Assembly (NCBI GenBank): GCA_036626195.1
Contig: JAZKSH010000001.1
Span: 9,334-73,333 of the forward strand
Length of the DNA: 64,000 bases
Direction: 5' to 3'
Origin: Thermoplasmatota archaeon
GTDB lineage: Archaea; Thermoplasmatota; Thermoplasmata; Halarchaeoplasmatales; Halarchaeoplasmataceae
The notes under the pieces are model-generated. The model was not told the origin of the DNA. It did no database searches and saw only the letters and a list, made by a program, of their open reading frames with translations. Each line of letters begins with the position of its first letter. The first letter of the stretch is position 1. A program made the position numbers and the translations under genes. Shown here piece by piece: positions 20,418-53,492 of the stretch.

Positions 20418-23400
20418 ATGAGTGATGGAAAACAAAGTAAAGATGAATCAATCGACGAGTTAACCCAGATATCCGAGATAGAAGCCGAAAGAGCCAAAGA
20501 GCTCTGCGAAAATGGTTGTGAATCAATAGATGATCTCATAGACGAAGGGATTGAAGGACTGGTAGATAACTACCAATTTGAGGAAAAAAGGGCATCTGAA
20601 ATATTTAAAGAGGCTAAAGAACTGGAAAAAAAGAGGGTTGAGGAAGAGGAGGGAGGAGAAGTAGGTGAATTGCTAGATGAGATCGATGAGCTCGAGCAGT
20701 CCCTACCAGATTCGGATACCTCTGAAGAAGAAAAAGAATCTAGCGAAGAGAAAAAAGACGAAAAAGAAGGCAAGGGAGATCTGTCAACCCAGATCGAGGA
20801 ACTCGAGAAAGCACTTTCGGAGTCAGATATCGCGGAAGAATCGATAGAAAAAGAGATCGTAGAAAGAAAAAAAGAGAAAGAAAAATTGGAAAAGGAACTA
20901 GAAGAGTTGAAAAAAGAGAGAGACAAGGTCGAAGAAAGGGTTGAGGAATCTTCTGATCAGATATCTAGTCTAAAGGAGAAAAGAGATGAACTTGAAGGAG
21001 AAATAGATGACCTAGAAGAGAAAAAAGAAAAATTGGAAGAAGTCAAGGAAGAACTCAATGACATAGAGAAAGAGATCGACGAAAAGAAAGAGGAAAAAGA
21101 AAGTCTAGAGGAAGAACTCGAAAATTTGAAAGAGGAAAGAGAAGCTCTAGAAGAGAGGGAAAAAGAGTTAGAAAATTACGAAGAAGAATTGGAAGAGAAA
21201 AAGAAAAAAATTAGCGAAAAGGAAAAAGAACTAGAAGATAAAAAAAGTGAACTCGATGAACACGAAAGTGAACTTGAAGAACTAAAAAGCGAAAAAGAGG
21301 AGCTTGAAGATGAAATAGATGAACTGGAAACTACAAAAGATGACCTAGAAGAACTCGAAGAAGAAAAGGAAAATTTGGAAGACGAAATCGAAAGCCTGAA
21401 AGAAAGTAAGGAAAGATTGGCGGAAAAAGAAGACCAACTTGAAGAGTATGAAAATGAACTGGAGAAGAAAAAGGAAAAAATAAGCGAAAAAGAAAAAGAA
21501 CTAGATGACAAAAAAAACGAAATCGATGATTACGAAAGCGAGCTTGAAGAACTAAAAGATGAAAAACAACAGCTCGAAGATGACGTCAATCAATTCTCTG
21601 AGCAGATCTCCGACCTAGAAGACGAAAAAGAGGAGCTTGAAGATAAAATAGATGAACTGGAAACTACAAAAGATGATCTAGAAGAACTCGAAGAAGAGAA
21701 GGAAAATTTGGAAGACGAAATCGAAAGCCTGAAAGAAAGTAAGGAAAGACTGGCTGAAAAAGAAGATCAACTGGAAGAGTACGAAGGTAAATTAGAGGAG
21801 AAAAAAAGTGAACTTAATGAACTAAAAGAGGAAAAACAACAGCTCAAAGACGACGTCAACCAATTCCATGAGGAGATTTCTAAGCTGGAAGACGAAAAGG
21901 AAGAACTTGAAAAGGAGGTCAACGAAAGGAAAGAAGAAAAAGAAAGTTTGAAAGAAGAACTAGAAAGCAAGGAAGACCAAAAAGATAAGTTAGAACGTCA
22001 GGAAAAAAAATTGAAAGAATATAATCAGAAATTAAAAGATAAAAAGGAGAAAATAAGCGAAAAAGAAAAAGAACTGGAAGATAAAAAAAGCGAACTAGAG
22101 GAACACGAAAATGAACTACAAGAACTAAAAGAGGAAAAACAACAGCTCAAAGGCGAGATCAACCAATTTTCTGGACGGGTATCTGATCTGGAAGAGAAAA
22201 AAGAAGGACTTGAAGACAAAATAGAGGAACTAGAAAGGAAAAAAGAAGAGTTAGAAGGACTCGATGAGAAACTCCAGCAGATAGAAAAGAAGATCGATGA
22301 AAAAACAGAAGAGAAGAAAAACCTAGAAGAAGAATTAAAGGATCTGAAAGAGCAGAAAAAGAGATTAAAAGAACGGAAAAAAGAACTGGAAGAATATGAA
22401 GAAGAGTTGGAAGATAAAGAGGAAAAAATAAACGAAAAAGAAAAGGAACTAGAGGGGAAAAGAGAGAAGATCGAGCACCGAGTCGAAGAATTAGAGAAGA
22501 ATAAAACCAAACTTGAGAAGAAAAAAGAGCGACTAGAGGAAAAGAAGGAGGAACTGGATAAGAAAGAGGGTGAGTTAAAAAAGGAAGAAAAAAGGCTAGG
22601 ATCGTGGGAAGATGAGCTTGCAGATAAAAAAAAGAAGTTAGATGAAAAGGAAAAAAAACTAGGAGAGGAAAAAGAAAATCTTAAAGGAAAAGGAAACAGG
22701 CTAGATCTGTGGGAGGTCAAACTCGAAGGGTGGGAAAAGCAGTTGGAAGATAGGTTAGAAAAAATAAAGGAGAAAGAAGAAGAGATCGAAACTCGAGAGG
22801 AAACCCTCACATCAACAGAAGAGGAATTGGAAGAGAAAGATGGAAAACTTCAGGACAAGGAAAAAGAACTCCAGTCTAAAGAGGATTCTCTAGAGAACTT
22901 AAAGAAAAATCTGGAAGAAAAAGAAGAGAGGCTGGAAAAAAGGAAAGAATCCCTAGAAGAGTTAGAAGATGAACTTGAAGAAAAAGAGGATGACTTGGAG
23001 AATTTCGAGGAAAAACTTGAAAACAAGAAGAAAGAACAGGACATAAGAGAGGTGAAATTAGAAGGGTGGGAAAGCCAGCTGGAAGAAAGGGATAATAACC
23101 TATCGGAAAAAGCTGATGCCCTAGAGGGGGAAGAAGAAGAACTTGAAGAAACTAGAGTGCAGCTATCCCAAAAAGAAGAGGAACTTGATGAGTTAGAGAG
23201 TGAACTGAGAGATAAAGAAAAATCATTAGAGGATTTAGAAGAAGAGCTAGAAGAGCGGAAAGAAAGATTGGAAAATTACGATAAAGAGCTACAAGAGAAA
23301 GAGGGCGAATTGGAAGAACGGGAGGAACTATTGGACGAAAAAGAGGAAAAATTGGAAAACAAGGAGGATGAACTAGAAAATTGGGATGGAGAGCTGAAGG

Positions 23401-25628
23401 AGAAAAAAGAAAATCTAGATGAACTGAAAAACGAGCTGGACGAGAGAGAAAAAGAAATAGAAAGCGAGAATCAGAAACTCCAGGAGAGGGAAGAAGAGCT
23501 CGATAAATTAGAGGATGGGTTGGAGTCTAGAGAGGAGGAATTGAATAGCTTTGAAGAAGAGCTAGACGGGAGAGAAGAGGAATTAAAAACCTGGAAATCT
23601 GAACTGGAAGAGAGAGAAGGAAAGCAGGAAGAATTTGAAGAAGAATTAGAAAAACGGGAGAGACGGTTGATAGAACAGCAGAAAAATCTCGACCTCCAGG
23701 AAGTCAAATTGGAGGGATGGGAATCTACTCTAGATGAAAGAGAAAATTCCTTGGACCAAAGAGAAGCAGAGTTAAAGGAAAGAAAAAACGACCTTATCGA
23801 AACTAAAGATGAAGTCAACCAGAGAAAGAAAGAGCTGGATGAATATAGTGATGAACTAGAAGAAAAAGAGGAATCTTTGGAAGAATTTGAAGAGACATTG
23901 GGTGAACGTGAGAGAGAACTTGACGAGAGCCAAAAATCCATCGAAAAAAAGGAGTCTGAATTGAGCCAAAGGGAAGAGGAACTCGATGATTTGAAAGAAA
24001 AATTGGACACAAGGAGAGAAGATATTTCAGAAAAAGAAGATGAGTTACAAAGCTGGGAAAGCGAGCTGGAAGATAAGGAAGCCTCCCTAAAAGAAAAAGA
24101 AAGCAAATTAAATAGAAAAGAAAAAGAGATCGAAGAAGAAAAAAGCGTGCTTGATGAGCGGAAAGAGAAGTTGGAAGAAATAAAAGATGATCTAGATGGT
24201 CGAGAAAAGGAGTTGGACGAGGTCGAGAAAAAATTAGAGAAAAGGGACGGAGAATTGAGATCTTGGGAGGAAGAGTTAGAAGAAAGGGAAAAAATACTCG
24301 ATAAGGAGAGAAACGATCTTGAGGAAATGAGAGACGAATTGGAAAGAAAAGAAAAGAGACTACAGGATAAAGAGAACGAGGTCGACTTTAGAGAAGTTAA
24401 GGTCGAGGGTTGGGAACGGGAGATGGAACAGAGAGCGCAAAAACTCTCTGACAAATCAAAAAGTCTAGACGAAAGGGAAGAGATATTGGCCAAAACTAAA
24501 AATGACCTCGATAAAAGAGAGGAAGAACTTTTAGACCTTGAAGAAGAATTCAGAGAGAAGCAAAAGTCCTTAGAAGCCTTTGAAGAAAAACTTCAGAAGA
24601 ATGAAACCGAACTCGAGGATTATAGAAGCCGATTGGAAAGAAAAGAGGCTGAGATCAAGGAGAAGGATAGAAATCTAGATCAACGTGAGAAAGAGATCGA
24701 TTCCTGGAGAGAGGACTTGGAAGAAAGGGAAGAAAAAATAGAGGAAAAATCTGATGAACTGGATGAAAGGATGGAAAGCCTGAATAAAAAGGAAGATGAA
24801 TTGACAGAGATGAAGGAAGAGTTAGAAGAAAGAGAAAAGAGTTTAGAAGAGGAAAGAGAAAAAATAAGGAAAGACGGGGAAGAATTAGAAAAGGAAAAAA
24901 GCAGGATATCCGAGATGGAAGCGGATTTAGAATCTGAAAAGGAAAAGGTAGAAGAAAAGAAAGCCGAGCTAAAGAGGGAGGAAAAAGAACTCAAAGAGAG
25001 AAAACAAGAGGTTAAGATGAAAAAGGAGGAACTGCTCGAAGTCTCAGAAGATACGGAGGAGAAAGCGAAAAAGATCTGGGAGCATTTCCAGAATGATGAA
25101 AAAATAGACGTGAATATGAAGGAACTGAACAAACAGTTGATAAGAGACTTTATTAGGATATGGAGCAGGTTCCAAAAAGCCGATGCCCACATAGGGATGC
25201 ATCCTGAGCCGAGCTCTTTCGCTGAGTTCATCAGCTTCCCCGAGGATTGGAAGTTCAAAGACGAATTCGATTTCTCTAAATTGAAGATGATCAGGTTGAC
25301 CAAGAAAACCCAATATGAAAATGGAGCTGAAGATGGTTTAATTTTAGATTACCATCTTGACAGTGATAAAGATCTTGTTATGGAATTATTTTTCGAATAT
25401 TGTGAAGAGAACACATACTCACGATCTTGGGGATGGGGGCGAAGCGTGACTAGATATTCTCTGTTTTCTGAAAAGCTCCCCCTTGAAGACGATAGGATGG
25501 GGGTATTCCATGAAGAATTAAAGGATTTTGTTAAAAAATGGTACGAATCTCATCTGACAAAGCATAGGGATCTGATACTCGATTACGTAGAGGACGAATA
25601 CGAGAGGGTGGAAAGTCGCCTTGAGTAG
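20418..25628 (+). CDS. Giant (1736 aa) coiled-coil protein: HhH-like N-terminus, ~1450 aa E/K-rich repetitive coiled coil, conserved C-terminal globular domain
   Basis: A single uninterrupted ORF. The reverse-strand Ser-rich ORFs inside it are frame artefacts. 333-nt tandem repeat units and a recurring EVKLEGWE motif are present. Confidence 0.7.
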   Translation: MSDGKQSKDESIDELTQISEIEAERAKELCENGCESIDDLIDEGIEGLVDNYQFEEKRASEIFKEAKELEKKRVEEEEGGEVGELLDEIDELEQSLPDSDTSEEEKESSEEKKDEKEGKGDLSTQIEELEKALSESDIAEESIEKEIVERKKEKEKLEKELEELKKERDKVEERVEESSDQISSLKEKRDELEGEIDDLEEKKEKLEEVKEELNDIEKEIDEKKEEKESLEEELENLKEEREALEEREKELENYEEELEEKKKKISEKEKELEDKKSELDEHESELEELKSEKEELEDEIDELETTKDDLEELEEEKENLEDEIESLKESKERLAEKEDQLEEYENELEKKKEKISEKEKELDDKKNEIDDYESELEELKDEKQQLEDDVNQFSEQISDLEDEKEELEDKIDELETTKDDLEELEEEKENLEDEIESLKESKERLAEKEDQLEEYEGKLEEKKSELNELKEEKQQLKDDVNQFHEEISKLEDEKEELEKEVNERKEEKESLKEELESKEDQKDKLERQEKKLKEYNQKLKDKKEKISEKEKELEDKKSELEEHENELQELKEEKQQLKGEINQFSGRVSDLEEKKEGLEDKIEELERKKEELEGLDEKLQQIEKKIDEKTEEKKNLEEELKDLKEQKKRLKERKKELEEYEEELEDKEEKINEKEKELEGKREKIEHRVEELEKNKTKLEKKKERLEEKKEELDKKEGELKKEEKRLGSWEDELADKKKKLDEKEKKLGEEKENLKGKGNRLDLWEVKLEGWEKQLEDRLEKIKEKEEEIETREETLTSTEEELEEKDGKLQDKEKELQSKEDSLENLKKNLEEKEERLEKRKESLEELEDELEEKEDDLENFEEKLENKKKEQDIREVKLEGWESQLEERDNNLSEKADALEGEEEELEETRVQLSQKEEELDELESELRDKEKSLEDLEEELEERKERLENYDKELQEKEGELEEREELLDEKEEKLENKEDELENWDGELKEKKENLDELKNELDEREKEIESENQKLQEREEELDKLEDGLESREEELNSFEEELDGREEELKTWKSELEEREGKQEEFEEELEKRERRLIEQQKNLDLQEVKLEGWESTLDERENSLDQREAELKERKNDLIETKDEVNQRKKELDEYSDELEEKEESLEEFEETLGERERELDESQKSIEKKESELSQREEELDDLKEKLDTRREDISEKEDELQSWESELEDKEASLKEKESKLNRKEKEIEEEKSVLDERKEKLEEIKDDLDGREKELDEVEKKLEKRDGELRSWEEELEEREKILDKERNDLEEMRDELERKEKRLQDKENEVDFREVKVEGWEREMEQRAQKLSDKSKSLDEREEILAKTKNDLDKREEELLDLEEEFREKQKSLEAFEEKLQKNETELEDYRSRLERKEAEIKEKDRNLDQREKEIDSWREDLEEREEKIEEKSDELDERMESLNKKEDELTEMKEELEEREKSLEEEREKIRKDGEELEKEKSRISEMEADLESEKEKVEEKKAELKREEKELKERKQEVKMKKEELLEVSEDTEEKAKKIWEHFQNDEKIDVNMKELNKQLIRDFIRIWSRFQKADAHIGMHPEPSSFAEFISFPEDWKFKDEFDFSKLKMIRLTKKTQYENGAEDGLILDYHLDSDKDLVMELFFEYCEENTYSRSWGWGRSVTRYSLFSEKLPLEDDRMGVFHEELKDFVKKWYESHLTKHRDLILDYVEDEYERVESRLE

Positions 25629-31264: not shown

Positions 31265-31314
31265 AGAATTAGAAGATTAAACCTTTATATTTCTAGACCT
31301 AGATAAAGAAGGAT

Positions 31315-31478
31315 TTAGTCCGAACTGAGTATTCTGTAAACGCCGGTGCCACAGTCCGGGCATTCGCCTTTCATCGCCGGCCTTCCGTTCTTCATCTCAG
31401 TCTTTTCTGCATTTTTTATCTCCACTTTCTCGCCGCATTTTACACAATATGCTTTAGCCATGATTTTCACTTCGGACA
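31315..31478 (-). CDS. Small zinc-ribbon protein (DUF5679-like)
   Basis: Hand translation gives MSEVKIMAKAYCVKCGEKVEIKNAEKTEMKNGRPAMKGECPDCGTGVYRILSSD, with two CxxC pairs. It is under 60 aa, so it is absent from the ORF track. Confidence 0.45.
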
Positions 31479-31524
31479 TACAAGTAAACAGAGGTATTAA
31501 TATTTTGCTTCCTTAAAAAGGAAG

Positions 31525-31866
31525 GGGTGTCAGGTGACCGATGTAAGCCCCTTTCTGTTTGGTATCAGCCGACATTCACCTGCGCGTCCTACCTGCCGGT
31601 CCCGGAAAAGTCATCCCGGCTTTTTTGGACTTGCTCCAGTGGGGTAAAGTGGCCGTTTCATCGCTCCCTCTAGTTCTCAGCTCCGCAGATTAACTCACCT
31701 CCCTTGCGAGAGGTTTCGCACGCTTCACAGCTCTCTAGAGGACGTGTCGTTTCTGCGCCCTGAACCGTGGCTCTCACCACACCAGCTTGCACTGATCCAC
31801 CTTTCCTGTGGAGAGGGGACTTTCCTCAGGTTGCGACCCGTCAGTCAGCCACGGTCTCCTGACAGT
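31525..31866 (-). ncRNA. rnpB: RNase P RNA (archaeal), on the minus strand
   Basis: The minus strand carries GAGGAAAGUCCCC (the P4 5' strand) and ACAGAAAGGGGCUUAC (the P4 3' strand, CR-IV-like). A terminal ~12-bp P1 helix (GUCAGGAGACCG/CGGUCACCUGAC) closes the molecule. The region is GC-rich and ORF-free. Confidence 0.65.
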
Positions 31867-31914
31867 ATATGGATTGTAAGAGGTTGATATTTAACTTTTC
31901 CTTCTGAAAATTTT

Positions 31915-32613
31915 TCATCCTGCAGTCTTCACATCAGGAGGGCGAGAGGCTTTCAATACCCATCTACCTTCCGTGTTCTCGTATCTCCACTCACCTTTCA
32001 CTACGGCGGGCTTTCCGAGTATGTCCCCTTCTTCCTCCCATGGCCTCATTGTACAGGTGAGCTCATACCTATCTTCACCCTCATCAATACTCGAAAGAAT
32101 CAACTCAGTTTGCTGAGACGAGTTCTTCTTCTCAACCACGTCCCCTCTAACTTTCAGTTCCATACCTTCATACCATCTAGGGTCCTCGAGGAGAGAAGAA
32201 ATTTTGGTAAAACTACTGTGCGCCTTTTCTAAAACTGATAGATAGCCGAGTTCATCCACTCTAAGATTCAGGTCACCCTCATATTCTTCTAAAACCCCTT
32301 CCACCTCTACGACGGCTCCAGCCTTCAGGTCTCTTTTATCTTCCTCCTGAACCCTCTCGATTTCTTTGTCAACAGCTACGGTCAGTGATTTCTGGTGGTC
32401 CTCCTCCTTTAGTTCCAACAGAACTGTATTTGGTAACCTGGTTATCCCGGAAACCGTACCTTCAGTGACTACTCGGGAACCTATCATGCCTTCATCGATC
32501 TCCGATATATTGGCCCGGACGGTGGACCGCTGGGATGACAACAGATACAGGGCGGATATCCCGCAGATGGATATTACCACGGCGAGCGTCAAAAGTTGTT
32601 CTCTCGTCAACAT
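31915..32613 (-). CDS. Membrane-anchored protein with two OB-fold-like (tRNA_anti/BOF-like) domains
   Basis: N-terminal TM helix followed by two beta-rich modules. Confidence 0.4.
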   Translation of the reverse strand: MLTREQLLTLAVVISICGISALYLLSSQRSTVRANISEIDEGMIGSRVVTEGTVSGITRLPNTVLLELKEEDHQKSLTVAVDKEIERVQEEDKRDLKAGAVVEVEGVLEEYEGDLNLRVDELGYLSVLEKAHSSFTKISSLLEDPRWYEGMELKVRGDVVEKKNSSQQTELILSSIDEGEDRYELTCTMRPWEEEGDILGKPAVVKGEWRYENTEGRWVLKASRPPDVKTAG

Positions 32614-32634
32614 CTGAGGATCTCCTCCATCGTA

Positions 32635-33804
32635 TCATATCATGGTCTCTATCTTTTTTTCGAGTTCCTCCGCTGTGATGTCAGAAAGAGATATCTTGGT
32701 CGTTCTTCCCGACCCGTCCGCAAATGTCCTAGTATTCAATATCCCTTCGTCGGAGAGGGACTGCAGATAGTTCCAAAATTGAGTGTGACCTAGTTTCTTA
32801 TTATCCTTTTCTTCACAAACCACCTTATATATCTCCTCTATATCACCCGTAGTGGTATAGGTGGTATTTTTTAAAGCTCTAGTCGCCGCAAGCAGTATCA
32901 TCTTCTCCTGTTCCTTGAGATCCCTCAGTTTCCTCTCGGTTATATGGGGATTGACTTCAGCTTTCGCCGACCTTACATCCTCCGTTGTGACCTCATTTTT
33001 CCCGTTCATCTCAGCGATCAGGCACGATTTCTCCAGCAGCTCTATCCCAAACCTAGCGTCTCCTCTTCCGTCTCCACCTTTGCCGGAAACGTCGGACAAA
33101 AGCCGTATCTTTTCCTCGTCTATCGAGCCGGGATGTAGTGCGATTTCGACCCTCTGTTGGAGTATCGGTAAGAGCTCTTCATTTGTGTACTTGGGAAACT
33201 TCACTCGATTGCTTCTTTTAAATGAACTTCTCGCGCTTTCCTCTAGAAGTTGAAATGCGTTCTTTTGGGATATGAGCAGGATAGATATATTTCCTGCAGG
33301 TTTTAACCTCTCTTCATCGAACCTCGAGAGCAAGTAGATCAGATCCGACCCGTTATTTTGGATGAGATAATCCACCTCGTCCAGTACGATGATAAGATGG
33401 AGATTTTTCTCCTCTATCTTTTTCTTTATGACCTCCATCATCTCCTCTGTAGAGAAGCCCCTATCCGGAAAGCCTTTATCGAAGTGATGGACAACTTTCC
33501 ACATCACTGAGCTGTCCTTTTTCCTTCTCCTGCAGTTCACGAAAACATAATCTATCGTTTTTCCTTTATCTTTAGCCCAATCTTCGAAATCCATACAAAA
33601 TCTTTTGGCGGTTGCTGTCTTTCCTGTGCCGACTGGGCCGTGAAGGAATACGTTCTGAGATACGTCCGAAGAAACGATCCCTCTGAACAAACCGAAGAGT
33701 TTCTGCATCTGGTCTTCTCTATTTGGAAGGTCTTCAGGTATATAGTCGAACGATAGTTTTTCTTGATCTTTGATTATCTTTCCAGTAGATCCTTCAAAGT
33801 TCAT
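32635..33804 (-). CDS. orc1: Orc1/Cdc6 replication initiator
   Basis: AAA+ Walker A LHGPVGTGKTATAKRF plus a C-terminal winged helix. Confidence 0.9.
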   Translation of the reverse strand: MNFEGSTGKIIKDQEKLSFDYIPEDLPNREDQMQKLFGLFRGIVSSDVSQNVFLHGPVGTGKTATAKRFCMDFEDWAKDKGKTIDYVFVNCRRRKKDSSVMWKVVHHFDKGFPDRGFSTEEMMEVIKKKIEEKNLHLIIVLDEVDYLIQNNGSDLIYLLSRFDEERLKPAGNISILLISQKNAFQLLEESARSSFKRSNRVKFPKYTNEELLPILQQRVEIALHPGSIDEEKIRLLSDVSGKGGDGRGDARFGIELLEKSCLIAEMNGKNEVTTEDVRSAKAEVNPHITERKLRDLKEQEKMILLAATRALKNTTYTTTGDIEEIYKVVCEEKDNKKLGHTQFWNYLQSLSDEGILNTRTFADGSGRTTKISLSDITAEELEKKIETMI

Positions 33805-33855
33805 GATAGCTCACTTCGCTTTGGTTGACTATCTACATCTAAAACAATTATAAAA

Positions 33856-34956
33856 TTATACCGTTAGATCGGCCTCACAGACTTCACAGGATTCCGCACC
33901 TTTATCGTTCATATGTTGACAGATAGGACACTCTATCTTATCTTTTTCCTCATCTCTCTCCTTATCTACATTTTCCTCCTCGATATCGTCTTTTTTGGAG
34001 TTGATGCTCTCTAGTCCTTCCTGGATATTTTTACTCAAGTCTTCTACCTCGCTCATGTCTCTCTCCTCTTCTTCTAATTCTCTTTCAGCCTTTATTTTTT
34101 CCTGTTCCATCTCTTCTTTAGAACGTGGTAAGACCGATTCCTTAATGGTTACGTGTTCTCCTGTACTTAGTGAACCCACATATTCCACACTACCTTTCAC
34201 GTCGACGCCGTCCGCTAGGGTTACGCTTCCTCCTGCAGAGATATCCATGACTTCTGAGCTCTTACCTATATCCAGTTCGGAATCACTCTCTAAGGCTCTC
34301 GCGCTGACTTCCTCTCCCATCTGAATTTTTTTAGCGCTTATCAATCCTTTAATCTCGCTGTTGTCCCCTATCTTCACTTCCCCTAGAGGGGATATCACAT
34401 CTCCATCTACTTCGGTGTTTGCTCCCAGCCTTATATCCCCACCGGCCTCCACAGATCCTCTTATCCTGACATTCTCTTCGCCTTCTATCATACCGCTGCA
34501 TTCTATGCTTCCAGAGACAACTGTATCGGGTGAAAGGGCGATGTCCGTACCAGATAATACCGGACCGTTGTTGGACCCTTCTCCTTTATTCTTCATCTTC
34601 CTCATCAGATTTTCGTTCTCCCGGTTCAGCTCTTCCACCTGTTTTTCTAACTCCTGATTTTCATTCTCCAACTCCTGGATTATCTTGTCTTTCCCCGGGT
34701 CCTCTTCTTTCTTTAACTCCTCTTCCATCTCTTCGATCCTTCTTTCTTTCTCCTCCAGCATCTTCTTCTTTTTGTCCTGTATTGCTCTATTCTCCCCTTC
34801 CAACTGCTCGATCTCCTCTTCAAGGCTCTCCTTCTCCTCCCTCAACCGACGTATCTGATCGCGATATTTCTTGAGCTTTGTACGGATATAATCTTTCTCA
34901 TCATCCATAATCTGCACTTCCACATTGATTTTTTTAAAGGTTTCTATAATATACAA
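33856..34956 (-). CDS. Bactofilin-like (beta-helical polymer domain) protein with N-terminal coiled coil and C-terminal zinc ribbon
   Basis: The central region carries hexapeptide-like repeats (VRIRGSVEAGGDIRLGANTEVDGDVISPLGEVKIGDNSEIKG...). The C-terminus is CPICQ...CEVC. Confidence 0.5.
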   Translation of the reverse strand: MYIIETFKKINVEVQIMDDEKDYIRTKLKKYRDQIRRLREEKESLEEEIEQLEGENRAIQDKKKKMLEEKERRIEEMEEELKKEEDPGKDKIIQELENENQELEKQVEELNRENENLMRKMKNKGEGSNNGPVLSGTDIALSPDTVVSGSIECSGMIEGEENVRIRGSVEAGGDIRLGANTEVDGDVISPLGEVKIGDNSEIKGLISAKKIQMGEEVSARALESDSELDIGKSSEVMDISAGGSVTLADGVDVKGSVEYVGSLSTGEHVTIKESVLPRSKEEMEQEKIKAERELEEEERDMSEVEDLSKNIQEGLESINSKKDDIEEENVDKERDEEKDKIECPICQHMNDKGAESCEVCEADLTV

Positions 34957-35004: not shown

Positions 35005-35661
35005 TTACAGTTCTTTTTCCAAGGTCTCGCTTAAGATGTCCACCACTCCCTCCATCCTCTCTTCCTCTATTAAACCTATCAGAGCTCCTCTTTTAGAGAG
35101 GCGTTTTATGTTCTTCGCCATCACCTTTTCTCTATGGTTTTCCAGCTCCTGAAAGCCGGTCAGCTTGTTTATAATCTTGTCCCACTTTAGGGCGAATTCC
35201 TCAGGGGTTTCGGCATCCACATTTTTTCTCCGCAGGGTTTTTTCTCTCAAAGCCTGTCTAAGCCACTGTGTTCCGGTGACGTGATCGCAGTAGGCCATGG
35301 TGTAGTGTTCTTCATCCATGTCAAAAGCTTCTATATCTATATCACGTTCTTTACAATAATCGAGAAAAAAGGTATAGGAGGGTGGGGGTAAACTCACTTC
35401 GCCGAATTGACTCAGTTTTTCGGCATATATCCTTTCTGGGGTGGACGGTTCAACTTCTATCTCGTCGTCCGCACCGCTTTTTTCTACAAAATCTTTCAAC
35501 CCCTTGACCTCTTCCTTCGAGATCGGGAGTCCTCCCACATCGAAATCCGGTTTTAATCGCTCTATATCCTCTTTCAATCTATCTCCTTCAGAAACCAGCC
35601 CCTTTACCACACCTAAAAGATAGACTTCAGAACCATCAATATTTAATTTGTATTTGCTCAT
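35005..35661 (-). CDS. TraB/PrgY-like family protein, tentative
   Basis: N-terminal LLGVVKG...PDFD resembles the start of TraB/GumN proteins. The assignment is weak. Confidence 0.3.
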   Translation of the reverse strand: MSKYKLNIDGSEVYLLGVVKGLVSEGDRLKEDIERLKPDFDVGGLPISKEEVKGLKDFVEKSGADDEIEVEPSTPERIYAEKLSQFGEVSLPPPSYTFFLDYCKERDIDIEAFDMDEEHYTMAYCDHVTGTQWLRQALREKTLRRKNVDAETPEEFALKWDKIINKLTGFQELENHREKVMAKNIKRLSKRGALIGLIEEERMEGVVDILSETLEKEL

Positions 35662-36614
35662 TTTCTATCATCCAAAAGTTCTGTCACCTTTTCTCTATCC
35701 TTTATTTTCGACAGTTCCTTCTTCTCTATTAGCGGTATGCCTTCTATGTTACTCCTGCTGTAACTTTTCCGCAGGAATATGACCGAGTCTTTTTCGGCGA
35801 TGTTCGACAGATTCGAAACCACCTTAGCTTTTTCCTTTAAGTCCTTGTTTTCTTGAGAACTGATGCCGCTGATAAGGACCGTCTCGTCGTCTTCAGTTAT
35901 AGCTTCAAACGGACACTTGCAGGTGGGAACTATCTTGTATCCTATCGACCTTAGAGATTTGAAGATGCTCCGTTCCAACCCGGAGTACTGGTCTAGTTCT
36001 ACTGATTCCGAGTATTCCCTGTCTTCGGATTCCGTTTCCTCTTTTTCGAAGGGGTTGATAGGGAGTATGAGATCCTCTCCCAAAAATTCTTCCAGCTTCA
36101 AAGCCACATCCAAATCGGCACCCATGCCGTTCTCGTACTTCTGTATGGACTTGCGAGAGACTCCTGCGACTTCTGCAAGTCTGCTGAGCGAGATCTTCTT
36201 TTCCTTCCTCGCTTCCTTTAAAATCTCTGAATCCATCTTCACGTAGAATCCACCCGGGGCAGAAAAGACATAAGGGGGTACGCCTTCCAAGACCATATCT
36301 TTCAAAGTGTCAGGGTTGAGCAATGGGATCCCGTTCCTCGAGTATACAACACCGGGCTTCAACTTTCTCTGTCCACCCACCAACGAGACGTAAAGAGGGG
36401 TGGCATCTATAGCTTCACAAAGTACTTTCATCTCCTTAGCATCTCCAGGGCGAGAGCTATCGGCGTTGACCGTGGCTCTGATGACGTATAGCTGTTCATC
36501 TTTCCTGGCGATTATATCGAATATCGTCCCGGGCTGATACTGTCTCTGGGATAGGTAAAACCCTCCTTTTGATAGAATTTCCCGGACTTCTTCTATCAGT
36601 TGAAGTCGGTTCAT
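35658..36614 (-). CDS. Archaeal COG1395-type HTH (XRE-like) transcriptional regulator
   Basis: Central HTH ISLSRLAEVAGVSRKSIQKYENG. The N-terminal domain is of the kind conserved in archaea. Confidence 0.5.
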   Translation of the reverse strand: MNRLQLIEEVREILSKGGFYLSQRQYQPGTIFDIIARKDEQLYVIRATVNADSSRPGDAKEMKVLCEAIDATPLYVSLVGGQRKLKPGVVYSRNGIPLLNPDTLKDMVLEGVPPYVFSAPGGFYVKMDSEILKEARKEKKISLSRLAEVAGVSRKSIQKYENGMGADLDVALKLEEFLGEDLILPINPFEKEETESEDREYSESVELDQYSGLERSIFKSLRSIGYKIVPTCKCPFEAITEDDETVLISGISSQENKDLKEKAKVVSNLSNIAEKDSVIFLRKSYSRSNIEGIPLIEKKELSKIKDREKVTELLDDRK

Positions 36615-36664: not shown

Positions 36665-39004
36665 TCAATCGCCCATCTCTTTTCCGAGAGTTTCCTTCCA
36701 AGATCTTCTTATCTCCTCTAAACTTAAATCTATCTTCTCTTTTTCGTTCACTTCGACTTTGACTTTACCTTTCACTTCGGAGACGGATCCTATCCTCTGG
36801 ATTGGTACGGAGAAGTTTTTCTCGAATTCTTCAATATTTTTCTCCTCTACCTCCACGATCCACCTCGTGTTGCTCTCGGAGAAGAGGAATTTATCCGGTC
36901 GTAAATCCGTCTGTAGATCGACTTTTACACCTAGATCGCCGGCCAAACACATCTCCGCTAGAGCCACACCGAAACCGCCCAGAGATACATCGTGACAGCT
37001 CCTTATCAACCCTTTCGAGTGAGCACTCAACATCTCGTCTTTGCTCTTCTGTAGAATATTCACGTCGACTTGGGGCACCTTCCTGCTCGAGCAATCTTCC
37101 ATCTGGTAGTACTCGGAACCTCCCATCTCTTCTTTTGTCTTTCCAACCAGGTAAAGGACGTTACCTTCCTCTTTCAGGTCCATGGTCTCCGCTTCTCTCA
37201 CGTCATCTATCAGACCGCTGGCTAGTATGGAAGGCGTTGGCTTGACAGGTCCCTCTTCTGTCTCGTTGTAGAAACTGACGTTTCCCGAAACGAACGGTAT
37301 CCCCATCGGTCTCGCGACCGCTTCTAGACCTTCCGCGACCCTTTCAAAGTCTCCGAGTCTTTCCGGCTTCTCAGGGTTGCCGAAATTAAGACAGTCCGCG
37401 AAGGAATGAGGTTCGGCTCCTACCGCAACCAGGTTGCGGACAGCTTCGTCAAGGACGGACATAGCCCCGGCCTTCGGATCTAAAGCAGTCAACTTCGGGA
37501 TAACGTCCGTCGTGATCGCAACACCTTTGAACGAATCTTCGAGAGGTTTGATCAGAGAAGCATCTCCTGGACCTTGCTTTCCCAGTACGCCCTGTAAAGG
37601 CTTCAAAACAGTATTTTCTCTGACCTCGTGATCGTACTGCCTGATCACCCACTCCTTGCTGTTGATATTGTCTCTCTGGAGGAGTGTAAGAAGAACGTCC
37701 CCATAATCTTCGGGTTCTTCCGGCTCTTTCTCTTCTATCTTTCTTACATGCTCTACGGATTCTGTAGGTCTGCAGTATGTAGGTCCGCCAGTCTGAAATT
37801 CTAAGTCTAGATCCATTATCTTTTCATCTTCGTAGTAAACTTTCATCCTTTTCTCGTCGATAACCTTTCCTATCCTTGTCGCCTCAACGTCCCATTTTTC
37901 GCAGATTTGCATCACTTCTTCAACATCTTTCTCTTTGACGGCGTACATCATCCTTTCCTGGCTTTCAGAGACCCAGATCTCCCAGGGAGCCATGTCTTCT
38001 TCTTTGAGCGGAACTTTATCCAGTTGCACTTCCGCACCGTAACCCGCATCGAGACCCATCTCGCCGGCTACACAGGACAGTCCTCCACCGCCGAAGTCCT
38101 TCATACCTTGTAACAAACCTTTCCTGTTCAACTCCAAGCTCGTATGTATCAGTGGCTCCTTCGTTATCGGGTCGCCGACCTGTACCGCTCCGATATCTTC
38201 CTCTTCGGAATCTTCATGTAATTCGTCAGAAGCGAAAGTGACTCCATGGATTCCGTCTCTACCGGTCTTCCCTCCCGCCATGATGAAGACGTCGCCGGGT
38301 TCTTTGACCCTGCTGCGTATCAATTCCTCCTTTTTTGCTATCCCTACGCAGCCGACGTTGACGAGACAGTTAGAGGTATAACAATCGTCGAAGTAAACCA
38401 TCCCCGCTACCGTAGGGATCCCGAGCCTGTTTCCGTAATCGCTTATGCCGTGGACCACGCCGTCGAAGAGATATCTTGGATGCTTGGTACCGGAAGGAAG
38501 ATCATCATAGTCTATATCCAAAGGTCCGAAGAACAGCGGATCGACAAAAGCTAAAGGTTGAGCGCCCATACAGGTCACATCTCTAACGATGCCTCCTATC
38601 CCGGTAGCTGCTCCTCCATAAGGTTCTATGGCGGAGGGATGATTGTGACTCTCCAATGCGACAACGTAAGCGTGATCGTCGTCGAACTCTACCACGCCGG
38701 CGTCTTCTTCGACCACGTAGATGTTCTGGGGCGCCTCTATATCGAATACAGTATCTTTCAATATAGGTTTAGAGGATTTGTAGCAGCAGTGCTCGGACCA
38801 GGCCTGTCCTATGGCCTCCAACTCGAGGTCCGTGGGATTCCGCCCGATCTTTTCAAAATGTTCCTTCACCATCTTCATCTCGTCGAGACTCAGGCCGACC
38901 CCGCTTTCCCTGCTGATCTCTTCCAAGTCTTTTTCATCCGCATCTAGGACGTTCACTTCGTGCAGTTCGAAAGGAACTTCTCTCTCGATGTAATGTTTCA
39001 TCAT
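36665..39004 (-). CDS. purL: Phosphoribosylformylglycinamidine synthase subunit PurL
   Basis: 779 aa with PurM-like tandem domains and conserved GGLS/GDA blocks. Confidence 0.9.
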   Translation of the reverse strand: MMKHYIEREVPFELHEVNVLDADEKDLEEISRESGVGLSLDEMKMVKEHFEKIGRNPTDLELEAIGQAWSEHCCYKSSKPILKDTVFDIEAPQNIYVVEEDAGVVEFDDDHAYVVALESHNHPSAIEPYGGAATGIGGIVRDVTCMGAQPLAFVDPLFFGPLDIDYDDLPSGTKHPRYLFDGVVHGISDYGNRLGIPTVAGMVYFDDCYTSNCLVNVGCVGIAKKEELIRSRVKEPGDVFIMAGGKTGRDGIHGVTFASDELHEDSEEEDIGAVQVGDPITKEPLIHTSLELNRKGLLQGMKDFGGGGLSCVAGEMGLDAGYGAEVQLDKVPLKEEDMAPWEIWVSESQERMMYAVKEKDVEEVMQICEKWDVEATRIGKVIDEKRMKVYYEDEKIMDLDLEFQTGGPTYCRPTESVEHVRKIEEKEPEEPEDYGDVLLTLLQRDNINSKEWVIRQYDHEVRENTVLKPLQGVLGKQGPGDASLIKPLEDSFKGVAITTDVIPKLTALDPKAGAMSVLDEAVRNLVAVGAEPHSFADCLNFGNPEKPERLGDFERVAEGLEAVARPMGIPFVSGNVSFYNETEEGPVKPTPSILASGLIDDVREAETMDLKEEGNVLYLVGKTKEEMGGSEYYQMEDCSSRKVPQVDVNILQKSKDEMLSAHSKGLIRSCHDVSLGGFGVALAEMCLAGDLGVKVDLQTDLRPDKFLFSESNTRWIVEVEEKNIEEFEKNFSVPIQRIGSVSEVKGKVKVEVNEKEKIDLSLEEIRRSWKETLGKEMGD

Positions 39005-44140: not shown

Positions 44141-44262
44141 CCGAGCACCGCAATCTCCAACTTGACCAGACCAATAAAAATATTTCCTTTGTGCTAATCC
44201 GAAGCTTTAATATACCTATATTCGATATCAAATTGGATGCCTTCAAAATTGGAAGGGATATC

Positions 44263-47200
44263 ATGAAAGCGGGGCTAAAATCGTGTATTTTCGTTCTTAC
44301 AGCCGTTTTGTTGGTAAGCAATTTTTCTGCTGCAGCACAAGCTTTTTCTGGATCGGTCGAGAGCTCTCCTGATAGTATTGATATGCCTGAAGAATCTGCA
44401 AGTACAGCAGAGGAAGTTGAGATACCAGATAAGAGCGGACCCGATCACGAATCTATCTCCCAAAATATAGAAGTGTTAAGGAAACAATACGAGGCGATAA
44501 AGGAAAGAGCGGAGGAAGTGAGAGAGTCCAAAGAATATTATTTCGATCAAGATGAGAGTTCTGAACAGAGAGACCTTGTGATCCCCGAGGACAGGGAAAA
44601 GCGGGACCCTATCAGGATTGAGTCTAACGAGGAGTTCTCAGAGAAGGCAGAAAATAACAACTGGTCTGGAGATGGTTCTGAAGATGATCCTTATACCATC
44701 GAAGGATACGAGATCAACGGGAATGAGACCGGGTATGGTATATATATAAGAAACGTGACGGATCACTTCGTAGTGAAAGATTGCTCCATATACAATGCTA
44801 CCAATGCTAGCGGTGTAAACTTAGATCCCAATGAGAACAGCGGCATATATCTACAAAACACGTGGAACGGTCATCTAGAGAATAATACTGTTTTCCGGAA
44901 TCATCAGGGCATATATTTGGTTTCTAGCTCAGGCAATACTATATCCAAGAATAACGCTTCTAACAATGCAGCAACCGGTATAAATCTCAGCGAGTCTTAT
45001 GACAATACGCTCGAAGACAACATTGTAGGATGGAACGAAATAGGTATCCAGATATGGCAATCTATCAATAATGAGATAGTAGAAAACATCGTGAAAGGCA
45101 ACGAAGCGAGAGGGATCTCTCTAGACACACAGCTTCTTTCTTTCCCTGGAGCTATTAATAACCAGGTGATCGGCAATGAAATATCCGGGGATGGGTCCGG
45201 TCTCAACCTCGACATTGATTATGGCATCTATATCGGCGCCTTTTCCAATGAGAACCTTATCAGGTCCAATGATATATCCGGGTATTTCTTTGGTATCTAT
45301 GTAGGCCTGCCCTTAAATCAGATCGATCTTCCAACGCCTTCTCCCAGCGGGCTTTTCCCCATATCTCCACAGGATAACACTATCACTGATAACGTAATCC
45401 AGAGCGGTCAAAATCTACTCAATTTCAACCCCTACAGCATCGGGCTCTTCTTTACGGAGAACAATCTCATCGATAACAATACCATGCAGAATGGAGGTAT
45501 CATGATATTGGGTTTGATATTATCGCACTGGAACACCCACACGATCACCGAGGAAAATACTGTCAACGATAGACCTGTGCGTTACTGGAAAGATAGAGAG
45601 GGGGGTGTTGTCCCCGAGGGTTCTGGCCAAGTGCTACTTGGCAATTGTAGTGATGTAGTGATAGAAGAGCATGAGTTGACAGAAGCCTCTGTAGGGATTC
45701 AACTGGGATTCTCAGACGAGAACATCATCCGGAACAACACGTTAGCTGGCGGTGTGCAGGCCATGGGTGTACAGAGTTCGTCGAACAATCTCATCTACCG
45801 TAACGAGTATGAAGAAAATTTTGTAGGTCTTGTGATGTTGTTATCTACCGAGAACGAAATTTATCACAACAATTTCCTCGAAAACATGCTGACCAATGCC
45901 ATGGACTTAGGGATGAATCAGTGGGACAACGGTTATCCTTCTGGAGGTAACTACTGGTCCGATCATGAAGGAAGTGATGAATACCACGGCCCGGAGCAGA
46001 ACACGTCAGGCAGTGACGGCATCATTGACGAACCATATGGAGAAAATTTTACTGACGAGTATCCTCTTAAGGAACCGGTACCTACACCTCATGTGAGGAT
46101 AGAACATCCCCTAGACGGCTCAGCTGTATCGGAAAAGGATGTGACGGCAAGGTGGACTGGCATTTATCGTTTTACAGATTATTTGGAATACGAGATAAGA
46201 TTGGATAGTGGTAATTGGATAGATATGGGGGAGGAAAAAAATTATGATTTCATGGGTCTAGAGGAGGGCCCTCACGATCTTTACGTGAGAGTTGCCGACG
46301 AGGAGGGGAATACTTTCACCAACCGGGCGTCCTTTATCGTAGATGTAACTTGTCCTGATGTACATATAACCGCACCAGAGGAGGATAAGATATTCGAAAC
46401 GGAGAATGTGACGGTGGAATGGGAAGGTATCGACGAGGGCAGCGGTATCGACTTTTATGAGTTGATTCTCGATGGAGAGCTAGAATACCAGGGTAGTAAG
46501 GAACGATATAATTTGACCGGCGTAGAGGACGGAAATCACGAGATAGAAATACGGGCCGTGGATAGAGCCGGTAACGAGGATATCGATGATTTATCTTTCT
46601 CAGTAGATACTACACCCCCAAATATACAGATAGTATCGCCGGAGGAAGGAGAAAAAATCGGTAATGAATCGGTGATAGTTGAGTGGGAAGCTAGCGACCC
46701 GATAGCCGGTGTAAATTCCTTCGAAATCAGGATAGAAGAAGAGGATTGGAGAGATGTAGGATCCTCTTTGAATTATGAATTCACAGGTCTTGAAGATAGA
46801 GAATATACGGTAGAGGTGAGAGCTCTCGATGAAGTAGGGAACAGCGGCATAGATGAGGTGAGTTTTACTGTGAACACCGTTCCTCCGGTCGTAGATATAT
46901 TGCAACCTAGTGAGAGGGAATTGATTGGTGAAGAATCCATAACTATCCTCTGGGAAGGTGAAGGGGAAGGGACGGAAATAGAGTATTATGAAGTCCGAAT
47001 TGATGAAGGTCCCTGGATCGAAGTTGGAATGGATACATCCTATACTTTTGATAATATTGAAGATGGAGAACATACCGTTGGAGTTCAAGCTACTAATGGA
47101 TTGGGGAACGCTGCCATCGACAGGACTACTTTGAAAGTCGATACAACTCCGCCTGAAGTAGGGATTACCACTCCTGAGGAGGACGAAGTGAGGCATACGA

Positions 47201-47823
47201 GTGATGTCGATATCCGCTGGGACGGGAGCGATGAAATCGGCGGTATAGATCATTATGAGGTACGTTTAGAAGGAGATGATTGGATAGATGTGGGAGGTTC
47301 CGAGAGTTATGTATTCTCCGATCTCCAAGACGGGGAGTATACCGCTGAGGTCAGAGCATGGGACAATGCGGGAAACGCTCGGACGGAAAGTGTCAGTTTT
47401 CTTATCGATCTGCCTGAAGAATATACTATAACCGTCGGACCGGTTAGAGATGTGAAAGGGGAGTTCATCGATGATCTAACAGTCACTTTGTTGGTGGACG
47501 GTGAAGAGAAATTGACCTTCGGAGGAGAGAACGGACGTTACAATTTCACCGTGGAGTTGATTTCACCTCCAGACGAGGTCGAATTTGAATATAAGATCGA
47601 ACATGAAGAGCTTGAAGAGGACAAAACGGGATCGTTCTATGGTAAGAATTCCGGCGAAGTGATAATAGACATGCACGGGGCAGACCCGTCCGCTCTCTTA
47701 TTTGCTATAGCTGTAGGGACGATCACGGCTATAATTTTGGGGGCGATAGTTGTTAAAAAGAGAGGAAATTCATCTTCGAAGGAAAGGAAGAATCTTGTAA
47801 AGTTGAAAAAGAGAGATAGATAA
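44263..47823 (+). CDS. Secreted, C-terminally membrane-anchored surface protein with an N-terminal right-handed beta-helix (NosD/pectate-lyase-like) region and six ~85-aa Y_Y_Y/Ig-like repeats
   Basis: Met 44263 is followed by a signal-peptide-like stretch. Many N-x-S/T sequons are present. The repeat unit is W-EG-DE-SGI--YE-RLD---W-------Y-F-GLEDGEH---V-A-D--GN. A C-terminal TM helix is followed by a basic tail. Confidence 0.6.
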   Translation: MKAGLKSCIFVLTAVLLVSNFSAAAQAFSGSVESSPDSIDMPEESASTAEEVEIPDKSGPDHESISQNIEVLRKQYEAIKERAEEVRESKEYYFDQDESSEQRDLVIPEDREKRDPIRIESNEEFSEKAENNNWSGDGSEDDPYTIEGYEINGNETGYGIYIRNVTDHFVVKDCSIYNATNASGVNLDPNENSGIYLQNTWNGHLENNTVFRNHQGIYLVSSSGNTISKNNASNNAATGINLSESYDNTLEDNIVGWNEIGIQIWQSINNEIVENIVKGNEARGISLDTQLLSFPGAINNQVIGNEISGDGSGLNLDIDYGIYIGAFSNENLIRSNDISGYFFGIYVGLPLNQIDLPTPSPSGLFPISPQDNTITDNVIQSGQNLLNFNPYSIGLFFTENNLIDNNTMQNGGIMILGLILSHWNTHTITEENTVNDRPVRYWKDREGGVVPEGSGQVLLGNCSDVVIEEHELTEASVGIQLGFSDENIIRNNTLAGGVQAMGVQSSSNNLIYRNEYEENFVGLVMLLSTENEIYHNNFLENMLTNAMDLGMNQWDNGYPSGGNYWSDHEGSDEYHGPEQNTSGSDGIIDEPYGENFTDEYPLKEPVPTPHVRIEHPLDGSAVSEKDVTARWTGIYRFTDYLEYEIRLDSGNWIDMGEEKNYDFMGLEEGPHDLYVRVADEEGNTFTNRASFIVDVTCPDVHITAPEEDKIFETENVTVEWEGIDEGSGIDFYELILDGELEYQGSKERYNLTGVEDGNHEIEIRAVDRAGNEDIDDLSFSVDTTPPNIQIVSPEEGEKIGNESVIVEWEASDPIAGVNSFEIRIEEEDWRDVGSSLNYEFTGLEDREYTVEVRALDEVGNSGIDEVSFTVNTVPPVVDILQPSERELIGEESITILWEGEGEGTEIEYYEVRIDEGPWIEVGMDTSYTFDNIEDGEHTVGVQATNGLGNAAIDRTTLKVDTTPPEVGITTPEEDEVRHTSDVDIRWDGSDEIGGIDHYEVRLEGDDWIDVGGSESYVFSDLQDGEYTAEVRAWDNAGNARTESVSFLIDLPEEYTITVGPVRDVKGEFIDDLTVTLLVDGEEKLTFGGENGRYNFTVELISPPDEVEFEYKIEHEELEEDKTGSFYGKNSGEVIIDMHGADPSALLFAIAVGTITAIILGAIVVKKRGNSSSKERKNLVKLKKRDR

Positions 47824-48351: not shown

Positions 48352-50298
<1,947 letters not shown>

Positions 50299-50299
50299 G

Positions 50300-52807: not shown

Positions 52808-52976
52808 ATCGAAAAACTCTTATTTTCCTATGGATTGAGCTATCATCGAATTTAGATTAGCGCATGGGCGCGTGGCCTAGCGGGGAAGATGAAAAATAAC
52901 ATCCTCCCCTCACATTCAAGGCCATCAAGATGCCCTTGAATATAGCCCGGACATAAACCTATTCAAAACTTTAATT

Positions 52977-53051
52977 GGGCGCGTGGCCTAGCCTGGACAT
53001 GGCGCTGCCCTTCTAAGGCAGACAGCACGGGTTCGAATCCCGTCGCGTCCG
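52977..53051 (+). tRNA. tRNA-Arg (anticodon TCT)
   Basis: Acceptor helix GGGCGCG/CGCGUCC with a G3:U70 pair. Anticodon stem CUGCC/GGCAG, loop CUUCUAA. T arm ACGGG-UUCGAAU-CCCGU. Confidence 0.75.
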
Positions 53052-53178
53052 TTTTTCTGTGAAAAACGGGCAAGGCGAGTGCGTCGGCACTCGTCGGCGT
53101 CCGCTTTTCTGTGAAAAGCGGTAAGTTAGAAATCTTTGATTTCTGACACGTCCGTTAAACTTGCTTTAACGGGCAAGG
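53035..53178 (+). repeat. Direct repeat copy 1 (144 nt): the tRNA 3' terminus plus three downstream stem-loops
   Basis: Identical to 53349..53492. It begins inside the tRNA T-loop (GAATCCCGTCGCGTCCG). Confidence 0.85.
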
Positions 53179-53348
53179 CGAGTGCGGCAGCATTCGCCGG
53201 CGTCCGCTTTTATTTTTTTAGCAAGGGATGAGAACCCTTGGGTTCTAAAGGAATGAATTCCTTATCATCCTCACCAAGTATGCCTCGGGTTCGTGAACAA
53301 ATCTACGGTTTCGTATGATTTGTGAGCGTTTGGAACTTGTTCCGATCA

Positions 53349-53492
53349 GAATCCCGTCGCGTCCGTTTTTCTGTGAAAAACGGGCAAGGCGAGTGCGTCG
53401 GCACTCGTCGGCGTCCGCTTTTCTGTGAAAAGCGGTAAGTTAGAAATCTTTGATTTCTGACACGTCCGTTAAACTTGCTTTAACGGGCAAGG
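53349..53492 (+). repeat. Direct repeat copy 2 (144 nt, exact)
   Basis: Exact match to 53035..53178 at an offset of 314 nt. It is preceded by GGGTTCG plus a ~57-nt insert, which looks like a T-arm split by an insertion. Confidence 0.85.

Follow-up and report, generated by a model that had tools for sequence, protein, structure and literature searches.

The gene immediately upstream of orc1/cdc6 in a 64-kb stretch of DNA from a Thermoplasmatota archaeon (contig JAZKSH010000001.1; the whole stretch, ~45% GC, is called the window below) appears to encode a divergent member of the bactofilin superfamily, and we favor, with some reserve, the view that its product is a filament-forming or oligomeric scaffold. 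The protein combines a probable N-terminal coiled coil, a β-helix of ~8 windings, an acidic tether, and a C-terminal zinc ribbon, in an architecture that has not been described before. An initial annotation, prepared from the DNA letters and their translations, had proposed a coiled coil, a β-helical repeat region, and a CPIC...CEVC zinc ribbon for this protein, and all three parts were found.

That the gene is real follows from its orthologues, which are 57–71% identical to the protein and keep the reading frame through indels that are all in frame; a chance open reading frame (ORF) is ruled out by this conservation. The three ORFs proposed for this locus, orc1 included, were all found on the minus strand (Table 1). 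The start of the bactofilin-like ORF had been placed at TTG 34956, and the orthologue alignment moves it to ATG 34908 (MDDEKDY...). A TATA-like sequence, TTTAAAAAAA, lies ~25 nt upstream of this ATG and suggests that the gene would have a separate promoter and a near-leaderless transcript; a TTTTATAA element is located ~45 nt upstream of the orc1 ATG. The assignment of the neighboring gene as orc1/cdc6 is, judged by its profile matches, unambiguous (TIGR02928, 281 bits versus a cutoff of 181.3; Cdc6_lid, 71.3 bits; Cdc6_C, 64.5 bits; AAA_22, 47 bits).

The N-terminus of the bactofilin-like protein opens with a basic block, KDYIRxKLKKYRDQIRRLREEKE, which is nearly invariant among close orthologues. 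The hydrophobic occupancy of heptad a/d positions is 0.39 in the N-terminal region versus 0.18 elsewhere, and the only families that match this region in Pfam and NCBIfam are coiled-coil families (SMC, MutS2, and similar); the first ~105–108 aa probably form a coiled coil. In the region that follows, hydrophobic residues recur with a period of six (autocorrelation of 0.26 at lag 6), and further peaks of self-identity occur at lags 18 and 24. The hexapeptide repeat proposed for this part is only a sub-period of a winding of ~18 residues. Laid out manually, the region consists of eight windings of 16–19 residues with the pattern G-x-[IV]-x-[IL]-G ... [IV]-x-G-x-[IV]. The acidic linker is highly variable in length across orthologues and carries long insertions in two of them (L006 and L008), and the four Cys residues of the zinc ribbon that follows it are invariant in 7 sequences, relatives with 36–44% overall identity included. 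The ribbon of the window protein gives weak matches to Zn_ribbon_3 and DZR, and that of a relative, P0001, passes the gathering score of Zn_Ribbon_1.

The bactofilin relationship is indicated by profile matches. In Pfam, the window protein matches Bactofilin (PF04519, DUF583) best, with aa 161–257 aligned to profile positions 5–97 of 98 at 22.4 bits (E = 1.5e-4), and the same family ranks first for all five orthologous domains, with a best E of 4.8e-7. An exhaustive phmmer search against 1.84 billion cluster representatives with the β-helix domain alone yielded 163 relatives at E ≤ 1e-3 and 22 at E ≤ 1e-10. Ten of the best of these relatives were scanned, and five, with phmmer E-values from 1e-27 to 1e-9, pass the PF04519 gathering score of 27.9 bits: P0001 (35.3 bits), P0002 (32.1), P0012 (28.8), P0016 (30.1), and P0025 (37.1). 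Among 99 more distant matches, PF04519 was found in 90 (best E = 4.6e-22), LbH_EIF2B in 28, and Hexapep in 11. Searches of other kinds were less productive: a word-indexed protein search with aa 125–366 returned nothing at E ≤ 1e-3, and comparison with PDB sequences gave weak matches only, to a bactofilin (E = 0.068) with the single sequence and to left-handed β-helix (LbH) proteins (E = 0.17–0.7) with a profile of five orthologues.

The structure of residues 109–264 was predicted by AlphaFold2 from the single sequence in five models, three of which exceeded a predicted local distance difference test (pLDDT) score of 92. The β-helix model, with a pLDDT of 93.8 and a predicted template modeling (pTM) score of 0.86, is a single uninterrupted, right-handed, triangular β-helix with windings of ~18 residues, as are typical of bactofilins. 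Its core of ~8 windings and ~145 aa, counted from model strands 9–153 and the manual register, exceeds the canonical ~6 windings in 100–110 aa. The model superposes on right-handed β-helices, including bactofilins, at 2–3 Å; tapirin, two-partner secretion and autotransporter passengers, and pectate lyase superpose on it at 1.9–3.5 Å. Left-handed GlmU, LpxD, LpxA, and γ-carbonic anhydrases reached similar Z-scores, but their root mean square deviations on the model were 10–12 Å, which we explain by the blindness of internal-distance comparison to a mirror image. The resemblance to bactofilins that had been proposed for the central region is supported both by the top-ranking family and by the right-handed model, on which left-handed acyltransferases fit only at 10–12 Å.

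Several observations, however, weigh against a bactofilin assignment. The PF04519 score of the window protein, 22.4 bits at full length and 25.2 for the domain alone, lies below the gathering score, as do those of all five orthologous domains. The predicted handedness comes from one single-sequence AlphaFold2 model, confidence was low, at 71 and 37, in two of the five predictions, and a Foldseek search of the PDB with the model gave no informative match. A short hydrophobic or amphipathic membrane-targeting peptide, a frequent though not universal trait of bactofilins, was not seen before the β-helix. Moreover, a profile built from 22 sequences of the family ranks GlmU (E = 6e-6) and eIF2B-ε (E = 1.6e-5) above the bactofilin TtBac (E = 2.7e-3) among PDB proteins, and because of this ranking handedness cannot be fixed by sequence alone. 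This last result, together with the weak LbH_EIF2B matches and the six-residue sub-period, speaks for an alternative in which the domain is a left-handed hexapeptide helix, as in GlmU, LpxD, γ-carbonic anhydrase, and eIF2B-ε, that would assemble into trimers, with its likeness to bactofilins being due to convergence of repeats. We consider this very unlikely. The left-handed structures deviate from the model several-fold more than the right-handed ones do; the Pfam scores are far below the cutoffs (13.4 versus 27 bits for Hexapep, 14–17 versus 54 for LbH), and the predicted winding is not left-handed; the winding length varies, with single-residue indels in the family alignment; and the protein has no catalytic or nucleotidyltransferase domain. 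In addition, true bactofilins cross-match Hexapep: P0023, a bona fide bactofilin at 56 bits, scores above the Hexapep cutoff, and we read the matches of the family profile to GlmU and eIF2B-ε as probable cross-talk between repeat types. Taken together, it is quite likely that the repeat region is a right-handed, bactofilin-related helix.

The closest relatives of the protein share the coiled coil, the β-helix, and the acidic linker, whereas the C-terminus varies. A zinc ribbon is present at this end in P0001, P0012, P0016, P0018, P0020, and P0025, and a tandem helix-hairpin-helix domain, (HhH)2, in P0003, P0005, P0006, P0008, P0009, P0011, and P0014; P0008 bears both, and P0002 and the paralogue at locus L018 have no extra module. 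Of the (HhH)2 proteins, P0003 and P0008 were scanned, and both match HHH_5 at ~45 bits, above its gathering score. The (HhH)2 domain is a typical non-specific DNA binder, and its exchange for a zinc ribbon suggests that the cargo is what diversifies in this family. The few members that carry names are proteins from metagenome-assembled genomes (MAGs) of Thermoplasmata or Thermoplasmatota, annotated as "hypothetical" or "helix-hairpin-helix domain-containing," and the family is archaeal and apparently confined to uncultured Thermoplasmatota. A scan of metagenomes with the family alignment picked up coiled-coil patterns and returned a single locus, and no description of such proteins was found in the literature that could be searched.

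How these parts might work together can be sketched as follows. The β-helix would self-associate end to end and, like bactofilins, need no nucleotide; chains would be paired or bundled by the coiled coil; and the tethered zinc ribbon would recruit a partner as an adaptor, the role of which would be taken over by (HhH)2 in the paralogues that carry it in the same place. The product would then be a scaffold, either filament-forming or oligomeric. If the protein does polymerize, it would be a new cytoskeletal element in a phylum whose cell biology is barely known. Another possibility is that the domain is a right-handed solenoid adaptor that does not polymerize, of the kind represented by the C-terminal domain of MinC (PF03775) and by FapA/DUF342 (PF03961), and serves in positioning at the envelope, the division site, or the motility apparatus. 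The long coiled coil could oligomerize without any end-to-end stacking, weak Pfam matches to MinC_C (two of the five orthologues, E = 0.004) and FapA (E = 0.009) were obtained, and FapA and DUF835 were matched by 8 and 6 of the 99 distant relatives, respectively. A connection with motility is hinted at by P0013 and P0017, in which the β-helix follows, as judged by eye, an archaellum FlaC/D/E-like segment and a DUF835-like region, and by P0005 (locus L012), whose gene is divergent from a complete archaellum operon. Bactofilin is, however, consistently the best family, is matched over the full length of its profile, and outscores MinC and FapA by a wide margin. We therefore regard this adaptor as improbable compared with a bactofilin-type scaffold.

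The gene order was compared at eight loci in close relatives (L001–L008), MAGs assembled from sediment of soda lakes and Great Salt Lake that bear the label Thermoplasmata or Thermoplasmatota and whose Orc1 proteins are 72–89% identical to that of the window. A cluster composed of a helix-turn-helix (HTH) regulator, p218, orc1, and a gene for an oligonucleotide/oligosaccharide-binding (OB)-fold protein is kept in all eight, with purL upstream and kae1 and the malic enzyme gene downstream where the contig extends that far, and no relative examined lacks the cluster. The bactofilin-like gene, which lies between p218 and orc1, is full length in four of the eight (L001, L002, L006, and L008) and absent from three (L004, L005, and L007), where p218 and orc1 are ~70–85 bp apart. 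The remaining locus, L003, encodes at 9497–9949 a 150-aa version that has the coiled coil and the zinc ribbon but from which an in-frame deletion has removed the β-helix and the linker. Either this gene is decaying or its end modules can act without the helix. Two distant loci, L009 and L010 (GCA_905333785.1 and GCA_964394465.1), carry all five genes in the order of the window, with identities of 64.5% for Orc1, 37% for the OB protein, and 33% for the bactofilin-like protein. In L009, moreover, the RNase P RNA (11797–12137) and DUF5679 (12195–12341) genes lie downstream of the OB gene as in the window. In a third lineage, represented by L014, which encodes P0001 (β-helix 50% identical), the HTH regulator, p213, and the bactofilin-like gene are followed by the contig end. 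Orthologues of the bactofilin-like gene are present in L001, L002, L006, L008, L009, and L014, and this gene and the OB gene evolve much faster than orc1, the HTH gene, and p218. The conservation of the three-gene arrangement, which the initial annotation had left to be checked, accordingly extends to a lineage as distant as L009, although the bactofilin-like gene is missing in three of the eight close relatives. Adjacency to orc1 is ancient for one branch of the family and neither universal nor obligatory. An apparent TATA-like promoter of its own, and the fact that some close relatives have the gene at this site and others do not, mark it as an accessory insert in an older cluster, HTH–p218–orc1–OB, and not an obligatory partner of Orc1.

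Paralogues are encoded in other surroundings. A paralogue that lacks the zinc ribbon follows Nre and SPL-like radical SAM genes in two independent assemblies (L013, 3810–6831; L018, 3723–6750), with Pfam confirmation of Nre_N/Nre_C for L013 only. Further sites are between a radical SAM gene and MscS, next to rpS15 in convergent orientation with a DHH/DHHA1 gene, near TBP, and in unrelated metabolic surroundings.

The position of the gene raises the possibility that its product is a replication- or chromosome-associated scaffold that works with Orc1 and the membrane-anchored OB protein, such that it would position the initiator, the origin, or new DNA, with its tails contacting nucleic acid or Orc1. 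The adjacency persists across the deep split at which the bactofilin-like proteins are only 33% identical and recurs in the third lineage; the C-terminal module of paralogues is (HhH)2; and some paralogues stand beside DNA-metabolism genes, namely, Nre with the SPL-like radical SAM gene and the RecJ-like DHH/DHHA1 gene. An analogy can also be drawn with the BacNOP–PadC–ParABS system of Myxococcus, where the ParABS machinery for origin segregation has a bactofilin scaffold (PMC5703909). Weighing against such a link are the absence of the gene from three of the eight close relatives in which orc1 and the OB gene remain intact, the loss of the β-helix in L003, the apparent promoter of its own, and the occurrence of paralogues beside unrelated genes, including an HhH paralogue next to the archaellum operon. 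The zinc ribbon, furthermore, is acidic (net charge −5), and DNA binding is therefore not favored; no origin repeats were found near orc1; and because archaeal genomes are compact, neighboring genes are weak evidence. The tie to replication, which is suggested by adjacency alone, thus seems doubtful, and a non-polymerizing adaptor is about as likely. Still more doubtful is its most specific form, in which a filament-forming bactofilin, encoded with orc1 and the gene for the membrane-anchored OB protein, would bind DNA or Orc1 through its zinc-ribbon or HhH tails and position the initiator or the origin at the membrane; if true, it would be an archaeal counterpart of the bacterial bactofilin–ParABS scaffolds. 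Although it consists of adjacency only, the location beside orc1, together with the orc1–OB pair, offers a testable, if weak, lead on the spatial organization of replication initiation.

The OB gene adjoins orc1 at every locus, starting 21 bp after it in the window and 5 bp after it in L009; the two genes form the tight pair of the cluster and are likely co-transcribed. Its product, annotated at NCBI as MAG hypothetical protein V5A88_00265 (Candidatus Thermoplasmatota archaeon), had been described as a protein anchored by a transmembrane (TM) segment with two OB-fold-like modules, a description that the AlphaFold2 model supports. The model, computed with an alignment of seven sequences (pLDDT 78.9, pTM 0.46), has a TM helix at aa 4–27, a first OB fold at approximately aa 32–129 (strands 47–59, 63–69, and 76–82, helix 83–88, and strands 101–111 and 114–119), and a second five-strand barrel at approximately aa 135–225 (152–222). 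A five-stranded barrel and a match to PF01336, of the tRNA_anti-codon/RPA-like type, identify the fold as OB. The charges flanking the TM helix give no consistent signal for its topology: they favor the C-terminal side in the window protein, whereas P0162 and P0163 have KKK at the N-terminus, as read from the alignment. A combination of coiled coil, OB fold, and zinc finger like that of Mcm10 was considered and rejected because the modules reside on different proteins and have no homology to it.

The initial annotation had also pointed out that no large intergenic region bearing origin recognition box (ORB) repeats adjoins orc1, and our results agree. The gaps flanking orc1 are 21 and 51 bp, and the sole large gap nearby, 31265–31914, is filled by the RNase P RNA gene and the DUF5679 mini-ORF. 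Matches to the ORB consensus, which may not be that of this lineage, were at chance (24 versus 22 expected). No repeated 11- or 12-mers were detected in the intergenic gaps near orc1 in the window and seven relatives (L001–L003, L005, L006, L008, and L009), and neither an AT-rich unwinding element nor a sizeable non-coding gap was seen near orc1 in the window or the flanks of these relatives. A repeat cluster in L009 turned out to consist of tRNA-end fragments. The suggestion that the origin may not be at this orc1 is consistent with the data, and a divergent or distant origin is possible; the point is unproven because the ORB sequence of the lineage possibly differs from the consensus and only 64 kb are visible.

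Table 1. Genes of the conserved cluster, their flanks, and the parts of the bactofilin-like protein (positions in the window)
Feature	Position	Strand	Basis or remark
purL	36665–39004	minus	upstream of HTH regulator
Putative regulator, PDDEXK_19 + HTH_3, PRK04140 type	35658–36614	minus	NF003162, 295.9 bits; HTH_3; PDDEXK_19 on orthologues
p218, 218 aa, no family match	35005–35661	minus	53–82% identity in 10 loci
Bactofilin-like gene, 350 aa + stop	33856–34908	minus	ORF and orthologue-aligned start
N-terminal charged α-helical region, aa 1–108	34585–34908	minus	conserved block; heptad pattern
Predicted right-handed β-helix, aa 113–264	34117–34572	minus	~8 windings of 16–19 residues, bactofilin-like
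Acidic low-complexity linker, aa 267–324	33937–34110	minus	net charge −14
C-terminal four-Cys zinc ribbon (IECPICQHMNDKGAESCEVCEADLTV)	33859–33936	minus	last 26 residues, CPIC-x10-CEVC
orc1/cdc6, 389 aa	32635–33804	minus	TIGR02928, Cdc6_lid, Cdc6_C, AAA_22
Membrane-anchored tandem OB-like protein, 232 aa	31915–32613	minus	starts 21 bp after orc1
Archaeal RNase P RNA	31532–31860	minus	Rfam RF00373, 201.4 bits
DUF5679 zinc-ribbon mini-protein, 48 aa	31315–31461	minus	Pfam PF18930, 54.7 bits

The conserved cluster starts with the regulator gene, whose stop is overlapped by the p218 start over 4 nt; the successive gaps from the HTH gene through p218, the bactofilin-like gene, and orc1 to the OB gene are −4, 48–96, 51, and 21 bp. 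After the DUF5679 mini-ORF, kae1 and then the malic enzyme gene follow on the minus strand. The p218 protein of L001–L009 and L014 contains an invariant MDxEHYTxAYCD motif, and its gene is always placed between the PDDEXK_19–HTH_3 regulator and either orc1 or the bactofilin-like gene; searches of Pfam, NCBIfam, and the PDB returned nothing for this protein, even with a profile of 11 sequences.

Elsewhere in the window, gyrB and gyrA (DNA gyrase) are located at 48361–52807 on the plus strand, ~15 kb from orc1, and a 1210-aa surface protein with NosD/right-handed β-helix and immunoglobulin-like domains is encoded at 44191–47823. A 1736-aa ORF at 20418–25628 on the plus strand is extremely purine-rich, with a GC skew of up to 0.49, and is made of degenerate, E/K-rich, heptad-like repeats (a 71-nt family in 58 copies and a 300-nt unit in four). 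It matches coiled-coil families only, namely RNase_Y_N and, faintly, the Crescentin rod, and its product is a giant coiled-coil protein, possibly another cytoskeletal or SMC-like element. The tRNA-Arg(TCT) gene at 52976–53052 is followed by two 174-nt direct repeats (53035–53208 and 53349–53522) that are 95% identical, start within the 3′ end of the tRNA (GAATCCCGTCGCGTCCG), and are built of short hairpins in series; a 22-nt copy of the 5′ end of the tRNA lies at 52865–52886. These look like att-site remnants of integration or excision, or the result of local duplication, and comparable tRNA-end fragments occur in L009 at 12521–12726.

Among known systems, the BacNOP–PadC system of Myxococcus xanthus (PMC5703909) is a functional analogy only: it shares the combination of a bactofilin scaffold with origin-proximal organization, whereas the present case shows gene adjacency that is not universal, and no homologues of ParA, ParB, or PadC were seen in the cluster. 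LbH hexapeptide proteins likewise have a six-residue sub-repeat built on aliphatic and Gly positions, and are reached by the family profile at E-values down to 6e-6, but have the opposite predicted handedness, and the enzyme domain is absent from the bactofilin-like protein. FapA/DUF342 and the MinC C-terminal domain are right-handed solenoid positioning adaptors with weak Pfam cross-matches, and proteins of the FapA type also have helical regions; their scores are nevertheless much weaker than those of Bactofilin, and their domain order and flanking modules differ.

The closest likeness is to canonical bactofilins, such as BacA of Caulobacter, TtBac of Thermus, BacNOP of Myxococcus, and CcmA of Helicobacter, which form the best-matching family and have a right-handed triangular helix with windings of ~18 residues. 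Such proteins assemble by head-to-head and tail-to-tail contacts into non-polar filaments. The model superposes on 6ria and 2n3d over their whole length, and the termini that flank the core are variable and predicted to be disordered, as in those proteins. In contrast to them, the window protein has ~8 rather than ~6 windings, a coiled coil instead of a short targeting peptide, and a tail that is a zinc ribbon or, in paralogues, HhH, and it scores below the Pfam threshold. The HalB and BacEF groups also include longer cores (PMC11459167). Functional study of archaeal bactofilins dates only from 2024 and is limited to haloarchaea, in which they shape the cell (PMC11459167). These halofilins of Haloferax volcanii are likewise archaeal members of the superfamily with diverged β-helices and lineage-specific modules: HalA has two head-to-head bactofilin subdomains linked by an α-helical hairpin that targets the membrane, and HalB has a TM domain at the N-terminus and, after it, a bactofilin domain, which in proteins of this type reaches up to 10 windings (PMC11459167). 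The groups distinguished in that study, canonical, HalA, HalB, and the 13-winding BacEF-like proteins, include none with the present architecture (PMC11459167). Compared with HalA and HalB, whose architectures it does not share, the window protein has one continuous helix, no TM segment or internal helical hairpin visible in its sequence, and an added coiled coil and zinc ribbon. It is set apart from both on the basis of these architecture descriptions, and it extends the diversity of archaeal bactofilins to Thermoplasmatota.

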